A DNA stretch of 58,796 bases from the NCBI GenBank assembly GCA_052388025.1, contig JBQTIP010000209.1, positions 1 to 58,796 of the forward strand, read 5' to 3'. The notes below the pieces were generated by a model. The model searched no databases. It had not been told where the DNA came from and was given only the letters and a program-made list of their open reading frames with translations. A program made the position numbers and the translations under genes. Source of the stretch: Actinomycetota bacterium. GTDB lineage: Bacteria > Actinomycetota > UBA4738 > HRBIN12. Below are positions 3,077 to 57,400 of this stretch, in pieces; the first letter of the stretch is position 1; every line of letters begins with the position of its first letter.

Positions 3077-4129
3077 ATGGACGCCTCGGAAGCGCTTCGC
3101 ATACTCCAAGACGAGCGCGCCCGAGGACTCGCGCTGATCGCCGAGGCGGCATCCCCCGAACAGCTCGAGAGAGCCAAGATCGCCGTCCTCGGCCGCAGAA
3201 CCCCGTACTCGGATGTCCAGCGAGCGTTGGGCTCACTGGGGGAAGACGACCGACGGATCGCCGGGAGGCTCGCCAACGAGGTTCGGGAGGCGCTGGAGGC
3301 GGCCCTTGAGGACCGCCGGGCGGAGCTAGGTCGCGAGGAGGAAGGTCGGCTCCTCGCAGCCGACCGGTTCGACGTGACGCTCCCCGGCCGGCGGCTGCGG
3401 ATGGGATCCCTTCATCCACTCACGATCGTGGAGTACGAGATCGTCGAGATCTTCACGCGCATGGGCTACCGGGTGGCCGAGGGTCCCGAGATCGAGAACG
3501 ACTGGTACAACTTTCAAGCCCTGAACATCCCAGCCGATCACCCGGCCCGCACGCTGAAGGACTCGCTGTACCTGGCCGTTCCGGGTCACGACCTGCTCCT
3601 CAGGACTGAGACCTCCGCCGTTCAGATCCGGACGATGGAGGTGCAGGACCCTCCTGTGTACGTCGTCGCACCGGGTCGCACGTACCGTCGCGAAGCCGTC
3701 GACGCGACGCATCTCTCGGTCTTCCACCAGGTCGAGGGGCTCGCCGTAGACGAAGGGATCTCCTTCTCGGACCTGAAGGGGACGCTCGAGGCGTTCGCAC
3801 GGGCGATGTTCGGGCCCGAGCGGCAGGTGCGCATGAACCCCGACTACTTCCCGTTCGTAGAGCCGGGCGCGCAGGTCGCAGTGTCGTGCTTCAGGTGCGA
3901 CGGTGCGGGCTGCGCTCTCTGCGGAAATGGGTGGATCGAGCTCCTCGGGGCGGGGATGGTGCACCCGAAGGTCCTGGAGAACTGCGGCTACGACTCGGAG
4001 CGCTACACGGGGTTCGCCTTCGGCATGGGCATCGAGCGTGTGGCGATGGTCCGCTACGGCGTGAACGACATGCGCCTGTTCGTGGACGGCGACGTGCGGT
4101 TCCTGGAGCAGTTCGAGGGCGTGGCGTGA
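3077..4129 (+). CDS. pheS: phenylalanine--tRNA ligase alpha subunit
   Basis: ATG at 3077 (MDASEALRIL). HPLT, YRREAVDATHLSVFHQVEG, FPFVEPG and GAGMVHP class II motifs. Confidence 0.93.
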   Translation: MDASEALRILQDERARGLALIAEAASPEQLERAKIAVLGRRTPYSDVQRALGSLGEDDRRIAGRLANEVREALEAALEDRRAELGREEEGRLLAADRFDVTLPGRRLRMGSLHPLTIVEYEIVEIFTRMGYRVAEGPEIENDWYNFQALNIPADHPARTLKDSLYLAVPGHDLLLRTETSAVQIRTMEVQDPPVYVVAPGRTYRREAVDATHLSVFHQVEGLAVDEGISFSDLKGTLEAFARAMFGPERQVRMNPDYFPFVEPGAQVAVSCFRCDGAGCALCGNGWIELLGAGMVHPKVLENCGYDSERYTGFAFGMGIERVAMVRYGVNDMRLFVDGDVRFLEQFEGVA

Positions 4130-6498
4130 AGATCGTCCTCTCCTGGCTGCGGGAGCTCTGCCCAACCGATCTGCCCGCCGAGGAGCTCGCGGAGCTGCTT
4201 ACGTCCAAGGGTGCCGAGGTCGAGGAGATCGTTCGGCCCTGGGAGCGGCTGTCCGGGGTCGTCGTCGCCCGCGTGATCGATGTCCGCGACCACCCCGGCT
4301 CGGAGAAGCTGTGCCTTGCGCGAGTCTCCACGGGTGCCGGTGAGCGCGAGGTCGTGGTCGGCGTGAGAAACATGCGGGCCGGAGACCTGGTCCCGCTCGC
4401 GGGTCCAGGGGCGACCGTCCCGGCGCTCCCCGAGCCGCTCACCGCCAAGAGTATCCGCGGTGTCGTGTCCGACGGCATGATCTGCTCACCGATGGAGCTC
4501 GGGATCGCGCCGAGCCACGATGGGATCCTGATCCTCCCCAAGGGCCCGGCACCGGGAGACGACGTCAAGGCCGCACTCGGCCTCGACGATGTCGTCCTCG
4601 ATATCGAAGTCACTCCGAACCGGCCCGACTTCCTGTCAGTCGTCGGCATCGCTCGGGAGGTCGCGGCTGCCACGGGCGTGGCGCTGGCGACGCCGGACGC
4701 CTCGCCCGTGGAGGAGGACGAAAAGGCCGAGGGCGTCGCTACCGTGGATATCTGGGATCTCGAACGCTGCCCCCGTTACCTGGCTCGGATCATCCGCGAC
4801 GTTCGCCACGTGCCGTCTCCCGTGCGGGTCCAGGCGCGGCTCACCGCTGCGGGCGTGCGGCCGATCTCGGCCGCCGTCGACGCTACCAACTACGCGATGC
4901 TCGAGATCGGTCAGCCGCTACACCCCTTCGACCTCGCCCTGTTGAAGGGACCGGGGATCGTCGTTCGCCGCGCCGAGGATGGAGAGCACCTCGTGACGCT
5001 CGACGGCGTCGAGCGCGTGTTCTCGGCCGACGACCTCATGATCGCCGACCTCGAACGGGCCGTCGCCGTCGCGGGCGTGATGGGCGGAGCCCTGGCGGAG
5101 GTCTCCGACGCCACCACCGACATCTTGCTCGAAGGCGCGTCGTTCGAGCGGGGTGGGGTCCAGCGGACCCGCCGGCGGATCGATCTCTCGACCGAGGCGT
5201 CGATGCGTTTCGAGCGGGGCGTGGACCCCGAGGCCGTCGCCTTGGCAGCGGACCGCGCCTGCCGCCTCATGGCGGAGTGGTGCGGGGCACGCGTGCTCGC
5301 CGGGGCGGTGGAGGCGGGCGGAGCGCCCGAGCGTCGCAGGATCGCGATACGTGCCTCGCGGGCCACTCGGCTCCTCGGGTACGAGGTGGCGTCCGCCGAC
5401 GCGGCCCGCGTGTTCGAGCGGCTCGGCATGCCGTCCGAGGGGGACGGCGACGCCGTCACCGTCGAGATCCCCGGGTACCGCGTGGATATCGAACGGGAGA
5501 TCGACCTCATCGAAGAGGTGGTCCGGGTTCAGGGCTACGAGCGCGTCGGCTCCACCCTGCCCCCGGTCCGGCAGGCGGGGGGCATGCCGGATGCCTACGC
5601 GTTCCGCGCTCGCATCCGTCGATCCCTCGTCCGGGCAGGACTCCGAGAGGTACGGCTGCTGTCGTTCGCGTCGTCGGCGGACCTCGATCTCACCGGCGAT
5701 CGCGACGCGGTGCGGGTGGCGAACCCCCTGGACGCCGAGGAGGGGTGGCTTCGAATGCGCCTGCTTCCGGGCCTGCTTCGAGCCCTTCGCACCAACCTGT
5801 CCAGGCAGGTCCGCGGCGCGGCACTTTTCGAGGTAGGGACCGTCTTCCGGCGCGCCGACCCGATCGAGGAGCGACAGATGGTCGCGATGATCCTCGGCGG
5901 CCGAGCCTCCCAGACCTGGACCGAGGCCGAGCGGTCCTTCGACTTCTTCGATGCCAAGGGTGCGGTCGAGGCCCTCCTCGGCGATCTCGGGATCGCCCAA
6001 TGGTCGCTCGGCGAGTCACCGGGGGAGGCTCTCCATCCGGGGCGCTCGGCGGCGGTACTGATCGATGGAGAGCGCGCCGGCGTGGTGGGCGAGCTGCACC
6101 CGGGGGTCGCGGAGCGCACGGACGTCTCGGGACGCGTGGCGGTCGCGGAGCTGGAGGTGGGCGTCCTCGTTAGGCACTCATCCGCCGAGCTCGCCGCCGG
6201 CGAAATCTCCCGCTTTCCCCCGGTCCGGCGGGATCTCTCGTTCCTGGTCGATGCCGAGGCTCCGGCGGGCGCGGTGCGGAGCGCCATCGTGGAGGAGGGG
6301 GGGGACTTGCTCGATTCGTGTCTGCTCTTCGACGTCTTCTCTGGGGACCCGCTGCCGGCCGGCAAGAAGAGCCTGGCCTTCTCCGTGGACTTCCGCGCGG
6401 CTGACCGGACCCTCGAGAACGAGGAGGCCGATGCCGCCGTGGCGGCGATCGTCGATCGGCTTTCGAAGGACTTCGGCGCGGAGCTCCGGGCAGGCTAG
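4126..6498 (+). CDS. pheT: phenylalanine--tRNA ligase beta subunit
   Basis: GTG at 4126 overlaps the pheS stop (GTGA). VKIVLSWLRELCP N-terminus, tRNA-binding domain, B3/4 and B5 regions, FDVF...GKKSLAFS C-terminus. Confidence 0.93.
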   Translation: MKIVLSWLRELCPTDLPAEELAELLTSKGAEVEEIVRPWERLSGVVVARVIDVRDHPGSEKLCLARVSTGAGEREVVVGVRNMRAGDLVPLAGPGATVPALPEPLTAKSIRGVVSDGMICSPMELGIAPSHDGILILPKGPAPGDDVKAALGLDDVVLDIEVTPNRPDFLSVVGIAREVAAATGVALATPDASPVEEDEKAEGVATVDIWDLERCPRYLARIIRDVRHVPSPVRVQARLTAAGVRPISAAVDATNYAMLEIGQPLHPFDLALLKGPGIVVRRAEDGEHLVTLDGVERVFSADDLMIADLERAVAVAGVMGGALAEVSDATTDILLEGASFERGGVQRTRRRIDLSTEASMRFERGVDPEAVALAADRACRLMAEWCGARVLAGAVEAGGAPERRRIAIRASRATRLLGYEVASADAARVFERLGMPSEGDGDAVTVEIPGYRVDIEREIDLIEEVVRVQGYERVGSTLPPVRQAGGMPDAYAFRARIRRSLVRAGLREVRLLSFASSADLDLTGDRDAVRVANPLDAEEGWLRMRLLPGLLRALRTNLSRQVRGAALFEVGTVFRRADPIEERQMVAMILGGRASQTWTEAERSFDFFDAKGAVEALLGDLGIAQWSLGESPGEALHPGRSAAVLIDGERAGVVGELHPGVAERTDVSGRVAVAELEVGVLVRHSSAELAAGEISRFPPVRRDLSFLVDAEAPAGAVRSAIVEEGGDLLDSCLLFDVFSGDPLPAGKKSLAFSVDFRAADRTLENEEADAAVAAIVDRLSKDFGAELRAG

Positions 6499-15025: not shown

Positions 15026-16559
<1,534 letters not shown>

Positions 16560-16703: not shown

Positions 16704-17235
16704 ATCTACAAGTCAAGTTACGAAGGGCTTACGGTGGATGCCTTGGCGCCAGGAGCCGATGAAGGACGCGTCAGGCTGCGAAAAGCTTCGGGGAGCCGCC
16801 GAGAAGGCCGAGATCCGAAGGTGTCCGAATGGGGAAACCCGGCCGGGGTCATGCCCGGTCACCCAGGTCTGAATCCATAGGGCCTGAGGAGGGAACCGCC
16901 CGAACTGAAACATCTCAGTAAGGCGAGGAACGGAAAGCAACCGCGACTCCCCTAGTAGTGGTGAGCGAACGGGGAAGAGCCTAAACCGGCACGGTGTGAC
17001 AGCCCGATGGCGTTGCCGTGCCGGGGTCGTGGGATCCGCGAGAACGCACGTCGGAGCGTTCGGGGAGTTACAAAGACAGCACCTAGCCGAAGGCCATGGA
17101 AAGGGCCGCCACAGACGGTAACAGCCCGGTAGACGAAAGGCGACTGACCTCCCCGCGGAGATCCCGAGTAGCACGGAGCCCGTGGAATTCCGTGTGAATC
17201 TGGAGGGCCCACCCTCTAAGGCTAAGTACTTCCTG

Positions 17236-17283
<48 letters not shown>

Positions 17284-17855
17284 GGGAGGGGAGTGAAATA
17301 GCACCTGAAACCGTGAGCCTACAAGCTGTCGGAGCATCCGTCTGGGTAACCAGGTGGGTGTGACGGCGTGCCTTTTGAAGAATGAGCCGGCGAGTTAGCG
17401 GTGTGCGGCAAGGTTAACCGTTCTCGGGAAGCCGAAGCGAAAGCGAGTCCTAACTGGGCGTCCAGTCGCATGCTCTAGACCCGAAACCGAGTGATCTAGC
17501 CATGGGCAGGCTGAAGCGAGGGTAAGACCTCGTGGAGGGCCGAACCCACCAGGGTTGAAAACCTGGGGGATGACCTGTGGTTAGGGGTGAAAGGCCAATC
17601 AAACTCGGTGATAGCTGGTTCTCCCCGAAATGCCTTTAGGGGCAGCCTCGGGCGTTCAGCAGCGGAGGTAGAGCACTGGTTGGGCTAGGGGGCCTACAAG
17701 CTTACCGACCTCAGCCAAACTCCGAATGCCGTTGCTTCAGAGCCCGGGAGTGAGGCTGCGGGGGCTAAGCTCCGTAGCCGAGAGGGAAACAACCCAGATC
17801 GCCAGCTAAGGCCCCCAAATCCGTGCTAAGTGGAGAAGGATGTGGGATTGCACAG

Positions 17856-17890
<35 letters not shown>

Positions 17891-18816
17891 GAAAGAGTGC
17901 GTAACAGCTCACTGGTCAAGTGGTCCTGCGCCGATGATGTAGCGGGGCTCAAGCACGGTGCCGAAGCTGCGGGATTCGCCGTATGGCCCGGCGCTCACGG
18001 GAAGCCGTGTGCGCCCAGGCCGGCGGATCGGTAGGGGAGCGTTCTCACGCGTGTGAAGCGGCGGGGTAACCCAGCGGTGGACGCGTGAGAAGTGAGAATG
18101 CCGGCATGAGTAGCGAAAGACGGGGGAGGAGCCCGTCCGCCGAATGCCCAAGGGTTCCTGGGGAAGGTTCATCCGCCCAGGGTTAGTCGGGACCTAAGCC
18201 GAGGCCGACAGGCGTAGGCGATGGACGACTGGTTGATATTCCAGTACCACCTCATCCGCGCCCAGGCCGAATCCAGGGCACTAAGGGAACCCCCTTCGGG
18301 GGGCTACCGACCCACCTGGTACTAGGCCAGCGAAGGGGGGACGCAGGAGGGTAGGTCGACCCACGCGATGGTCGTCGTGGGGTAAGTGCGTAGGGGGGTC
18401 CCCCAGGCAAATCCGGGGGGCCGCAACCCTGAGGCACGATGCCGAGCCGCTTTAGGCGAAGCGACTGATCCCAAGCTGCCGAGAAAAGCCTCTAGCGAGT
18501 GGATGAGGTGCCCGTACCCCAAACCGACACAGGTGGGCAAGTAGAGAATACTAAGGCGATCGAGAGAACCCTGGTTAAGGAACTCGGCAAACTACCTCCG
18601 TAACTTCGGGAGAAGGAGGACCACGGTAGGGTGAAGGACCTAGCGTCCCGAGCCCGATGTGGTGGCACAAACCAGGCCCAAGCGACTGTTTACTAAAAAC
18701 ACAGGTCCGTGCTAAGTCGCAAGACGACGTATACGGACTGACGCCTGCCCGGTGCTGGAACGTTAAGGGGAGGGGTTAGCTTCCTTCGGGAAGCGAAGCT
18801 CCGAACCTAAGCGCCA

Positions 18817-18851
<35 letters not shown>

Positions 18852-19556
18852 TCCCGGAGGGATGCCAACCTCCGGCTGCCCCTCTCGCTGGCGACAGCGA
18901 TGAGTGCAGTTGGCTATATGCTGGAAAACCCGAGCATCTCGCGGTACCGGCGATGTCAGACCCCCGGTGTAGGGTAGGTCAATGACCGGTGACAATCCGT
19001 CGAGTGCGGACAATCAGCAGGAAAGGCCAGGACTCGAGCAGTGGATCGTTGGTTTCGTCGACGGTGAGGGCTGCTTTAGCATCCCGATCTTCCTGTGCCG
19101 AACGTGCAAGCTCGGCTGGCAAGTTCAGCCCGACTTCACGGTTACACAGGGTGAGCGGAGCGTGCACGTACTGTACGAGCTGAAGGAGTTCTTTGGATGC
19201 GGCCACGTCTCCATCAACCGGAGACGTGATAACCATCGGGAGCACATGTATCGCTACAGTGTGCGGGCTCTCGATGATCTCACTCGCCGCATCGTCCCGT
19301 TCTTCGAGGCAAATCCACTGAGAACGGCGAAGGCCGATGAATACGCGAAGTTCGCTTCGGTGATTCGGATGATGAGGAAAGCTGAGCAACTCAGCCTCAC
19401 TGGACTGATTCGAATCGCGAAGATCTCGCAGACGATGAATCATCGGAAGCCGTCTCGGTTCCTGGAATCCTCAGAGGCCATACGCCAGCCAGCTCTCGTC
19501 CGACGGGAGAGTTGAAGATATGGTCCGAGCCCCATGGCGACATGGGGGGCGACTCG
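18852..19556 (+). mobile_element. group I-like intron 1 in 23S rRNA (after the E. coli U1931 equivalent), carrying a LAGLIDADG ORF
   Basis: Conserved rRNA ...ACGGTCCTAAGGT stops at 18851 and resumes with AGCGAAATTCCTTGTCGGG at 19557. The insert ends in G. P3 is 18887-92 with 19484-89. P7 is 19476-81 with 19520-25. P9 hairpin with GCGA loop at 19530-47. Confidence 0.85.
18982..19515 (+). CDS. LAGLIDADG homing endonuclease (single motif, I-CreI-like size), intron-encoded
   Basis: 177 aa. Motif WIVGFVDGEGCF. N-terminal DNPSSADNQQER, typical of rRNA-intron LAGLIDADG proteins. The ORF 3' end overlaps the P7-P8 ribozyme core. Confidence 0.85.
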   Translation: MTGDNPSSADNQQERPGLEQWIVGFVDGEGCFSIPIFLCRTCKLGWQVQPDFTVTQGERSVHVLYELKEFFGCGHVSINRRRDNHREHMYRYSVRALDDLTRRIVPFFEANPLRTAKADEYAKFASVIRMMRKAEQLSLTGLIRIAKISQTMNHRKPSRFLESSEAIRQPALVRRES

Positions 19557-19600
<44 letters not shown>

Positions 19601-20140
19601 CAACGACTTGGGCGCTGTCTCAACCAGGGACTCGGCGAAATTGCACTACGAGTAAAGATGCTCGTTACCCGCGACAGGACGGAAAGACCCCGGGACCTTT
19701 ACTGCAGCTTGATGTTGGGTTCTGGCATGTGTTGCGTAGGATAGGCGGGAGGCTTTGAAGCCTCGACTCCGGTCGGGGTGGAGCCAACCTTGAAATACCG
19801 CCCTTCACGTGTTGGGACTCTAACCTTGGCCCGTTATCCGGGTCGGGGACAGCGTCTGGTGGGCAGTTTAACTGGGGCGGTTGCCTCCTAAAAGGTAACG
19901 GAGGCGCCCAAAGGTTCCCTCAGCCTGGTTGGCAATCAGGCGTCGAGTGCAAGGGCACAAGGGAGCTTGACTGCGAGACCGACGGGTCGAGCAGGTGCGA
20001 AAGCAGGGCCTAGTGATCCGACGACCCCTAGTGGTAGGGTCGTCGCTCAACGGCTAAAAGGTACCCCGGGGATAACAGGCTGATCGCTCCCAAGAGTCCA
20101 TATCGACGGAGCGGTTTGGCACCTCGATGTCGGCTCGTCT

Positions 20141-20191
<51 letters not shown>

Positions 20192-20228
20192 AGGCACGCG
20201 AGCTGGGTTTAGAACGTCGTGAGACAGT

Positions 20229-20977
20229 AAGTTGACCGTTGCTGTCGGTAAATCCGGCTAAGTGCTGGGAACACCGTGGATCCCGGGCTACTCGCCTTGT
20301 CAGAGGCAGCTGCTAGCGTGCTGACATGCGCAGTGACAACGCCTCGGGTGCGGTCAATCAGCAGGAAAGGTTGGATGCCTACATAGCGGGATACGTTGAC
20401 GGAGAGGAATCGTTCCACGTCGCCGTCCAGCGGAACCCATCGACGAGAGCCGGATGGCAACTCGTTCCGGAGTTCCACGTCAGCCAGAACGCCGAACGAC
20501 GTCAGGTCCTGGACCTGATCAAGGGACGGCTCGGCTGCGGACGGATCCAGGAGAACCATTGTGGTTCGGCGGACACATCACTGGTGTTCGTTGTTCGGAA
20601 CCGCGAGGACCTCCTGACGAGGGTGATCCCCTTCCTCGAGACGCAGCCTCTTCTGAGCAGCAAGCAGCAGGACTTCCTCGTCTTCGCCGGCATCGTCCGG
20701 GCGATGGGACGAGGGGAGCACCTGAGCTCGGAGGGGTTCCGGTCACTCAGGCGGCGAGCGCTCTCCATGAATGGAGGTGGTCGCTACCGCAGAGTGCATC
20801 GGGTGTAGGTATCCAGAATCCTCAGAGACCATACGCCGGACGCCGCTCCCTCCCCTCGTGCCCGAGGGGGACGGATCACCGCGGCGAAGAGATGGTCCGA
20901 CCTGCATGGCGACATGCAGAGCCGGGCAGAAATGACCCGGCCCCTGCCGAGACAGTCCCGGCGGGGTAACAGAAGTG
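20229..20977 (+). mobile_element. group I-like intron 2 in 23S rRNA (after the E. coli U2604 equivalent), carrying a LAGLIDADG ORF
   Basis: rRNA ...GAACGTCGTGAGACAGT stops at 20228 and resumes with TCGGTCCCTATCCGTCGTGGGCG at 20978. P1: exon GACAGT 20223-28 pairs with GCTGTC 20241-46 (U-G at the splice site). P10: GACCG 20234-38 pairs with 3' exon CGGTC. P3 is 20253-58 with 20835-40. P7 is 20827-32 with 20892-97. P9 with GCGA loop at 20902-19. Terminal G at 20977. Confidence 0.9.
20326..20808 (+). CDS. LAGLIDADG homing endonuclease (single motif), intron-encoded
   Basis: 160 aa. Motif YIAGYVDGEESF. N-terminal DNASGAVNQQER. Alignable along its length with the intron-1 ORF. Confidence 0.8.
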   Translation: MRSDNASGAVNQQERLDAYIAGYVDGEESFHVAVQRNPSTRAGWQLVPEFHVSQNAERRQVLDLIKGRLGCGRIQENHCGSADTSLVFVVRNREDLLTRVIPFLETQPLLSSKQQDFLVFAGIVRAMGRGEHLSSEGFRSLRRRALSMNGGGRYRRVHRV

Positions 20978-21356
20978 TCGGTCCCTATCCGTCGTGGGCG
21001 TAGGAGACTTGAGGGGAGCTGCCCCTAGTACGAGAGGACCGGGGCGGACGTACCTCTGGTGTGCCAGTTGTCGCGCCAGCGGCACGGCTGGTTAGCCACG
21101 TACGGCAGAGATAAGCGCTGAAAGCATCTAAGTGCGAAGCTCGCCTCGAGATGAGGTCTCCCACGGGGTTGACCCGGTAAGGCCCCTCGCAGACTACGAG
21201 GTTGATAGGCCGGAGGTGTAAGCACGGCAACGTGTTGAGCCGACCGGTACTAATAGGCCGAGGACTTGGCTTTTGCTCGCGCTCGCTATCGCGTTCCGAG
21301 GTTCCCTCGGAGCTCGCGCCCTCTTCGGGCCAGCTTGTACAAGGCCCGAGCCAACG

Positions 21357-21474
21357 TTTCGGTGGCCATGGCGGAGGGGAAACACCCGGTCCCATCCCGA
21401 ACCCGGAAGTTAAGCCCTCCAGCGCCGATGGTACTGCCCCGGCGACGGGGTGGGAGAGTAGGTCGCCGCCGGGA
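21357..21474 (+). rRNA. rrf: 5S ribosomal RNA
   Basis: Helix I pairs 21357-21366 with 21465-21474. Conserved CCCGAACCCGGAAGTTAAGC and GGGAGAGTAGG segments. Confidence 0.93.
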
Positions 21475-57214: not shown

Positions 57215-57400
57215 AAAGACGGGGGGCCCGTTTGCCGATACGCGTATAGGCAGCAAGAACAGGGTTGGTCCCGAAAGGGCAAACCGTCGGAAACGGCGGC
57301 ACGCAAAGCTCAGGGCCTTAGCGCCGAGAGGCGAAGGCAGCCGAGCCGTCGAAGGACTGAGAGCCCCCAGCAGGGCCCCCGGTCCCAGGGACCCTGGATT
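57215..57400 (+). ncRNA. candidate structured 5' leader (unclassified) upstream of the CAP-domain gene
   Basis: Three GNRA-capped hairpins: 57263-85 (GAAA), 57284-99 (GAAA) and 57322-33 (GAGA). A possible closing helix pairs GGCCC 57225-29 with GGGCC 57313-17. Some resemblance to ydaO-class motifs (GACGGGGGGCCC, CCGAGCCGTC), but not diagnostic. Confidence 0.3.

Follow-up and report, generated by a model that had tools for sequence, protein, structure and literature searches.

The window analysed here, by which we mean the whole of a 58,796-nt stretch of DNA from an uncultured Actinomycetota bacterium (assembly GCA_052388025.1, contig JBQTIP010000209.1, forward strand), contains a bacterial ribosomal RNA (rRNA) operon whose 23S gene is interrupted, in the peptidyl-transferase region, by a 749-nt insert carrying an open reading frame (ORF) for a LAGLIDADG endonuclease. 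Rfam models placed the 16S gene at 15026-16553, the 23S gene at 16711-21273 and the 5S gene at 21358-21474. The 23S gene is 4563 nt long compared with 2925 nt for the bacterial large-subunit (LSU) rRNA model, and the remainder of the gene scored 2581 bits over that full model.

Insertion site of the intron and its family

The results of our MAFFT alignment of the window 23S gene with an annotated E. coli 23S gene (a copy of 2903 nt) showed two large inserts, one of 705 nt (18852-19556) and one of 749 nt (20229-20977). The sequence CCUAAGGU ends at position 1931 of the E. coli copy, which we take to be 1931 in the standard numbering as well, whereas the exon arithmetic of a preliminary description of this DNA, made from the letters alone, had implied 1932 for the first intron. 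The sequence GAGACAGUUCGGUC starts at position 2596 of the copy, 1 nt below the standard numbering, which has A2602 as the A of GACAG and numbers the next two U's 2604 and 2605. Because of this difference of 1 nt at GAGACAGUUCGGUC, the second insert is placed after the standard U2604; alignment and standard numbering together located it between U2604 and U2605, 11 nt downstream of L2593, where the preliminary description had also put it. The junction reads ...GAGACAGU / AAGUUGACCG...CAGAAGUG / UCGGUCCC, with AAGUUG at the 5' end and AAGUG at the 3' end of the intron, and cannot be shifted without altering conserved exon sequence. The element and its ORF are as follows.

20229-20977, + strand: whole group I intron, 749 nt after 23S U2604, delimited by the E. 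coli alignment and by the same junction in 77 other loci
20326-20808, + strand: LAGLIDADG_1 endonuclease ORF, 160 amino acids, with the single motif IAGYVDGEESF at residues 20-30

Relatives were sought in GTDB, each species being represented by a single genome; the scan yielded 110 encoding stretches, from which 80 loci were retained. All of the loci with both exon flanks (77 in addition to the window) have the same junction, with GAGACAGU before the insert and a G followed by UCGGUC at its end, and their inserts measure 689-781 nt; the terminal G is present in 78 of the 78 family members. The hosts are mostly Actinomycetota metagenome-assembled genomes (MAGs) of the Acidimicrobiia, Gaiellales and Solirubrobacterales, and further members occur in one Kazan genome of the candidate phyla radiation (CPR) and in Armatimonadota, Gamma- and Deltaproteobacteria. 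Complete MAG chromosomes from several phyla, such as OY970234.1 and CP011216.1, are among the sequences that carry members of this family, hereafter L2604. The earlier call of a group I intron with a LAGLIDADG ORF was thus borne out by the 77 loci with the same junction, by the helices described below and by the Pfam match of the ORF product, and these sequence comparisons confirm 20229-20977 as a genuine group I intron, with a homing-endonuclease gene inside, in an otherwise intact bacterial 23S gene.

Secondary structure and covariation of the ribozyme

The helix map of the window intron is given below in the order of the sequence; P, J and L denote paired regions, joining segments and loops, respectively, and a prime marks a 3' strand.

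20223-20230, + strand: P1 5' strand, exon GACAGU (20223-28) with intron A20229 and A20230, pairing with 20239-46
20234-20238, + strand: candidate P10 guide GACCG, 5 bp with the 3' exon CGGUC (20979-83), with marginal family-wide support
20239-20246, + strand: P1 3' strand and internal guide UUGCUGUC, pairing with the P1 5' strand
20253-20258, + strand: P3 5' strand UCCGGC, partner GCCGGA (20835-40)
20263-20268, + strand: P4 5' strand UGCUGG (P element), pairing with UCAGCA (20358-63), by homology to an ORF-less paralogue aligned to RF00028
20269-20272, + strand: J4/5 GAAC, directly after the P4 5' strand
20273-20276, + strand: P5 5' strand ACCG, partner CGGU (20351-54)
20282-20348, + strand: P5 extension, made up of P5a, P5b and P5c
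20282-20288 with 20341-20348, + strand: P5a, CCCGGGC with GCCUCGGG, one bulge
20289-20292 with 20332-20335, + strand: P5b, UACU with AGUG, from the computed map of the window copy
20293-20331, + strand: P5c hairpin, computed fold, containing the AUG start codon of the ORF
20351-20377, + strand: P5' CGGU, J5/4 CAA, P4' UCAGCA (Q element) and P6 5' strand GGA..UUGGAUG, all within ORF codons 9-18
20364-20377 with 20810-20821, + strand: P6, with 3' strand UAUCCAG (20810-16) and UCC (20819-21)
20810-20824, + strand: segment in which J6/7 UCA follows, and abuts, the P6 3' strand
20825-20832, + strand: P7 5' strand, G20825, bulged A20826 and GACCAU, partner AUGGUCC (20892-98), from a partial Rfam alignment
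20835-20840, + strand: P3 3' strand GCCGGA, 2 nt from P7
20841-20885, + strand: P8 hairpin, closing pairs GCCGC (20842-46) and GCGGC (20881-85)
20886-20898, + strand: J8/7 GAAGAG and P7 3' strand AUGGUCC (S element), from a partial Rfam alignment
20902-20919, + strand: P9 hairpin CUGCAUG-GCGA-CAUGCAG, with a GCGA loop
20921-20966, + strand: peripheral hairpins P9a (20921-41) and P9b (20942-66), of which P9a covaries in the MAFFT alignment
20977, + strand: terminal (omega) G, the 3' splice site lying before U20978 (U2605)

In P1, the exon GACAGU pairs with GCUGUC (20241-46) so that a U20228.G20241 wobble lies at the 5' splice site, and two further A:U pairs extend the helix. P7 consists of G20825:C20898, the bulged A20826 and the pairing of GACCAU with AUGGUC, in which G20827:C20897 sits at the position that we take to be the guanosine-binding pair. 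All the tested pairs of P1, P3, P5, P5a, P5b, P6, P7, P8 and P9 are canonical in the window, as are those of P4 after correction of a strand offset. The full helix map of the window intron has no P2 and no P7.1/P7.2, the latter because only 2 nt separate P7 from the P3 3' strand. The predicted P2-less core is one resembling the IC1-like, P2-less class of Haugen et al. 2007 (PMC1995217).

P1, P3, P7, P8, P9 and the terminal G lie where the preliminary description had put them, but the P4-P6 domain had been missed altogether. Its assignment rests on a paralogue of 207 nt that lacks an ORF and occupies the L1923 site of an Actinomycetota MAG locus (L008); this paralogue scored 76.2 bits against RF00028, passing the gathering score, and is 68.8% identical to the ORF-deleted core of the window intron. 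The alignment of this paralogue to RF00028 showed P4 (UGCUGG with UCAGCA), J5/4 (CAA), P5 (UCCGA with GCGGA) and a P6 closing just before UCAGAG, and it located the Q element inside the ORF, from which the P4-P6 domain of the window was assigned.

The same alignment led to the rejection of two other candidates, AAUCC-NNNNN-UAC (20279-91) as the Q element, which is part of P5a, and UCCAG (20812-16) as P4', which is P6'; the CCAG is not conserved outside the L2604 family among 162 paralogous R elements surveyed. No consistent partner for the variable block emerged when one was sought. A pairing of GUCCGAC with the 3' exon proposed by RNAalifold was spurious, the ORF-deleted alignment having removed the true Q element, and an all-against-all scan of alignment columns was too noisy beyond the main helices.

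Covariation was tested in 77 family members, with the helices taken at fixed offsets from invariant anchors and distinct rows counted, against 500 partner shuffles; since the shuffles ignore relatedness, their counts are not probabilities. P3 and P9 were canonical in 100% of cases, with three and five pairs changed on both sides, respectively, while P5a (92.9% canonical), P8 (86%) and the inner part of P6 (85.7%) had 7 of 7, 5 of 5 and four pairs changed on both sides, and for none of these five helices did any shuffle reach the observed value (0 of 500). P5 (90% canonical) and P7 (83.5%) each had two pairs changed on both sides, the observed value being reached by 5 and 13 of the 500 shuffles, respectively. 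P5 occurs as xCCG/CGGy with A:U, U:A, G:C or C:G and also as CCUG/CAGG; inner P6 as CUGGAUG/CAUCCAG, CCAGAUG/CAUCUGG, CUAGAU/AUCUAG and CUAAGUU/AAUUUAG; and P7 as GACCAU/AUGGUC, GACUGU/ACAGUC and GACUAU/AUAGUC, while the outer GGA/UCC of P6 is GGG/CCC in some members. These compensatory changes support the proposed P3, P5, P5a, P6, P8 and P9, and for the predicted P3, P5a, P8 and P9 the count of pairs that changed independently on both sides is convincing.

Four loci (L060, L062, L065 and L082) have an additional hairpin of about 25 nt between the GGUG and CGG of the P5 3' side, in the N-terminal coding region.

The endonuclease and its overlap with the ribozyme core

Neither a frameshift nor a stop interrupts the full-length ORF, and residues 20-123 of its product matched Pfam LAGLIDADG_1 (PF00961) with 62.6 bits (cutoff 23.1; 7e-17). 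A metagenome protein collection contained 1415 relatives, more than 120 clusters of which are at least 73% identical. The search of PDB sequences returned I-OnuI-family domains (down to 1.5e-31), I-TnaI (7e-23), I-Vdi141I and I-CeuI, and an I-CreI derivative at 2e-15 over the first approximately 90 residues only. The AlphaFold2 model of the product (predicted local distance difference test 82.8, predicted template modelling score 0.79) has a helix at residues 9-27, four strands and helices, and this predicted fold follows the alpha-beta-beta-alpha-beta-beta-alpha pattern of one LAGLIDADG domain. The best Foldseek match of the model was I-TnaI (5gkk), the Thermotoga L1931 enzyme (template modelling scores 0.78/0.84, root-mean-square deviation 1.5 A, 37% identity), and I-Vdi141I and I-CeuI were also matched. 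From the single domain we infer a dimer, and by analogy the product would be a homodimer that cleaves the intron-less allele. The joined-exon sequence CGTCGTGAGACAGTTCGGTCCCTATCCGTCG is weakly palindromic, with 5 of 11 positions matching at the junction and 7 of 11 about an axis 5 bp downstream; with 23 axes tried, this is not significant and serves as a lead only.

One relative on a 6-kb contig labelled Methylococcaceae (L063, CADDYU010000240.1) has an L2604 endonuclease 68% identical to that of the window, as close as many Actinomycetota copies, which could reflect mis-binning or a recent transfer.

The preliminary description had put the ORF in a peripheral loop upstream of P7, which is right for its body, located in L6, but not for its beginning. 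The ORF starts in the P5 extension and crosses P5', P4' and the P6 5' strand, and its first approximately 17 codons double as the P5c, P5b', P5a', P5', J5/4, P4' and P6 strands. The Q element AAUCAGCAGG lies within the ORF in the region of codons N11-R15 (N11 Q12 Q13 E14), and codons N11-D17 (AAU CAG CAG GAA AGG UUG GAU, 20356-20377) form J5/4, P4' and P6. Residues N11, Q12, Q13, R15, L16 and D17 are invariant in the family and E14 is nearly so; they coincide with the P4' and P6 strands and are therefore doubly constrained, the invariance of the peptide NQQERLD being explained by the use of its codons as Q element and P6 strand. The NQQERLD peptide was also seen in L1931 and L1917 endonucleases.

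Known relatives and competing explanations

The preliminary description knew of no catalogued LSU intron at this site, and this claim of novelty fails. According to Tsurumaki et al. (2024, J Bacteriol, PMC11270868), position 2604 (23IS13) is a group I/LAGLIDADG_1 site in CPR bacteria, one of the positions 1917, 1931, 1952, 2593, 2604 and 2657 (23IS6-8 and 23IS12-14) at which LAGLIDADG_1 ORFs predominate in CPR 23S insertions. The same authors state that the position-2604 site was previously unreported outside CPR; the enzyme that they characterised, I-ShaI, belongs to 23IS7, and for position 2604 the text consulted contains neither an enzyme assay nor a secondary structure. 23IS13 is like the window intron in insertion position, intron class and single-domain LAGLIDADG_1 ORF and unlike it in host, which is CPR there and Actinomycetota here. 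The Kazan (CPR) genome of our own family (L076, CP011216.1) carries a member at exactly this junction, its amino-acid identity being 57%. Full-text literature searches found no mention of the position-2604 site beyond Tsurumaki et al. 2024 and nothing relevant under the name L2604, and Haugen et al. 2007 (PMC1995217) gave L1917, L1931, L1951 and L2593 as the only sites of bacterial LSU introns encoding endonucleases. What is new here is modest: the non-CPR hosts, the uncharacterised specificity of the enzyme, a substitution in the catalytic motif (G28E) private to the window copy, the secondary structure with its covariation and the abundance of the family in Actinomycetota MAGs.

The L1917 and L1931 introns (Thermotoga I-TnaI, Synechococcus C9/C1 and Simkania) resemble the window intron in being IC1-like with no P2 and a complex P5, and their single-motif ORFs likewise begin in or near P6 and run into core helices (PMC1995217). 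They differ in insertion site, so that the internal guide differs too, as presumably does the DNA target. The L1931 intron of the window and the L1917 and L1923 introns of locus L008 are nearly identical to the L2604 intron in their P, Q, R and S elements, and judged by this near identity of the elements the L2604, L1931, L1917 and L1923 introns are paralogues at different 23S sites, the two introns of the window among them. The endonucleases of these two introns are 35% identical to each other. Cr.LSU, which encodes I-CreI, and the L2593 introns share with the window intron a location in LSU domain V and a homodimer-type LAGLIDADG gene, and with 11 nt between the two insertion points the DNA targets are likely to overlap. 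However, P7.1/P7.2 and a short P2, described for the L2593 introns (PMC1995217), are missing from the window intron, and the window protein is only distantly related to I-CreI, being nearer to I-TnaI and to I-OnuI-type domains.

The L1931 intron of the window (18852-19556, 705 nt) is a group I intron with a 177-amino-acid LAGLIDADG_1 ORF at 18982-19515. The 23S gene of locus L008 contains at least three introns with the same core (at about 1717-2439, 2453 to about 2660, and 3404-4157), namely an ORF-containing intron at about L1917, the ORF-less L1923 intron of about 207 nt and an L2604 intron, and in many other loci the L2604 intron is preceded by several P-element copies. A 191-nt segment of L008 that had looked like a 'mini-intron' proved to result from the exon pattern matching by chance at the L1917-type intron.

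Smaller, lineage-specific expansions of the window 23S relative to E. coli are found at 18246-18313 (68 nt), 16988-17029 (42 nt) and 17061-17096 (36 nt), after E. coli positions 1402, 274 and 305, respectively. The 68-nt insert after 1402 would, by its place, be the Actinobacteria-specific signature insertion of 23S domain III. A cyclic di-GMP-I riboswitch aptamer lies at 57268-57353 on the + strand (64 bits, above the gathering score).

We regard it as very probable that 20229-20977 is occupied by a mobile group I intron, equipped with a LAGLIDADG endonuclease gene and inserted at U2604/U2605, in the peptidyl-transferase region of an uncultured Actinomycetota. Several observations weigh against this reading. 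The P1 helix (exon strand and guide) and P4 are invariant in the family and so show no covariation. P10, earlier called textbook, does have 5 bp in the window, but over 50 distinct P1 loops its pairing potential was 4.08 bp compared with 3.74 bp for shuffled loops, which is marginal. The segment from J6/7 through P7, P3', P8, J8/7 and P7' to P9 aligns with RF00028, but the window copy scored 15.3 bits (E = 0.32) where the gathering score is 50, an outcome that the preliminary description had named as refuting, and cmscan of the 5' half of the intron alone gave no group I match. We put the low score down to the P5 extension of 75 nt and, in L6, the ORF of 480 nt, neither of which the model can bridge. 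Finally, compared with a 99%-identical metagenomic protein, the window copy has two private changes, G28E (20407-20409) and R79C (20560-20562). Of 120 relatives, 119 have G28 (DGEGSF or DGEGTF) and the other did not fit the search pattern, while the window has E28. In an alignment that sets E27 against I-CreI D20, E27 would be the catalytic acidic residue and position 28 would correspond to I-CreI G21. The endonuclease of the window copy may therefore be impaired or inactive through G28E, although G28E and R79C could be a sequencing or assembly variant instead of decay.

The homing cycle of such elements runs from invasion and fixation to decay of the endonuclease and loss, and the alternative that survives best is that the window copy is a relic late in this cycle, inherited vertically, with an intact-looking ribozyme and an endonuclease killed by G28E and R79C. 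The change at an invariant glycine next to the catalytic E27, accompanied by a second private change, favours this, as does the comparison with the nearest relatives by flanking exon, which are Actinomycetota MAGs with 96-97% exon identity but about 80% intron identity. The full-length ORF without frameshift or stop, the integrity of all the ribozyme helices and the possibility that G28E is an assembly or sequencing variant argue in the other direction, and we consider a decaying relic rather unlikely.

A much less probable explanation is that the insert is an intervening sequence (IVS) excised without religation, of the ribonuclease III type that fragments 23S rRNA, or that the operon is a non-functional rRNA pseudogene. 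Bacterial 23S genes do carry IVSs, and insertion sequences are present in 18.5% of the non-CPR RefSeq 23S genes according to Tsurumaki et al., but in their account the ribonuclease III-type sites (23IS2 and 23IS4) lie in less-conserved regions and not at 2604/2605 in the peptidyl-transferase core (PMC11270868). The insert has a full covarying group I core together with a terminal G and a U.G pair at the splice site, none of which an IVS requires; the rest of the 23S gene scored 2581 bits over the full model, and several phyla have the same element in complete MAG chromosomes. Membership of the classical I-CreI/L2593 family, the shift being an artefact of alignment or numbering, is suggested by the distance of 11 nt, by the E. 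coli copy that is 1 nt short and by an insertion site that we take to lie within the 22-bp I-CreI recognition sequence, but it can be dismissed with near certainty given the junction fixed by sequence (GAGACAGU before the insert, G and UCGGUC at its end), the lack of the P2 and P7.1/P7.2 of L2593 introns (PMC1995217) and a protein that is more distant from I-CreI than from I-TnaI and I-OnuI-type domains.

For the mobile group I intron that we favour, we infer splicing, homodimerisation, cleavage and homing from family membership. Exogenous guanosine bound in P7 would attack after U20228, the terminal G20977 would then take the same P7 site, and ligation of the exons would restore ...GACAGU-UCGGUC.... 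By analogy with I-TnaI, I-CeuI and I-CreI, the endonuclease homodimer would cut intron-less 23S rDNA around 2604 and so bring about homing, which would explain the presence of the same element at the same site in several phyla. A new endonuclease specificity is plausible. We lean slightly towards a fuller account in which the family enzyme is homodimeric with an uncharacterised specificity of about 22 bp at 23S 2604-2610, overlapping but unlike the I-CreI/I-MsoI site, in which the element has spread horizontally over at least five phyla with soil Actinomycetota, not CPR, as the major reservoir, and in which the first 17 codons are a dual code for protein and ribozyme.

The L2604 family leaves the current understanding of group I introns and homing unchanged. 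It shows that position-2604 group I introns extend beyond CPR, being common in uncultured Actinomycetota and present in several other phyla, and the Q element and P6 strand that overlap the conserved NQQERLD codons make a clean example of dual coding. With rRNA introns in ordinary soil bacteria, rRNA surveys and annotation can miss or mis-size such genes. The predicted enzymes of the family are a pool of compact homodimeric meganucleases with a target in DNA that is among the most conserved known.

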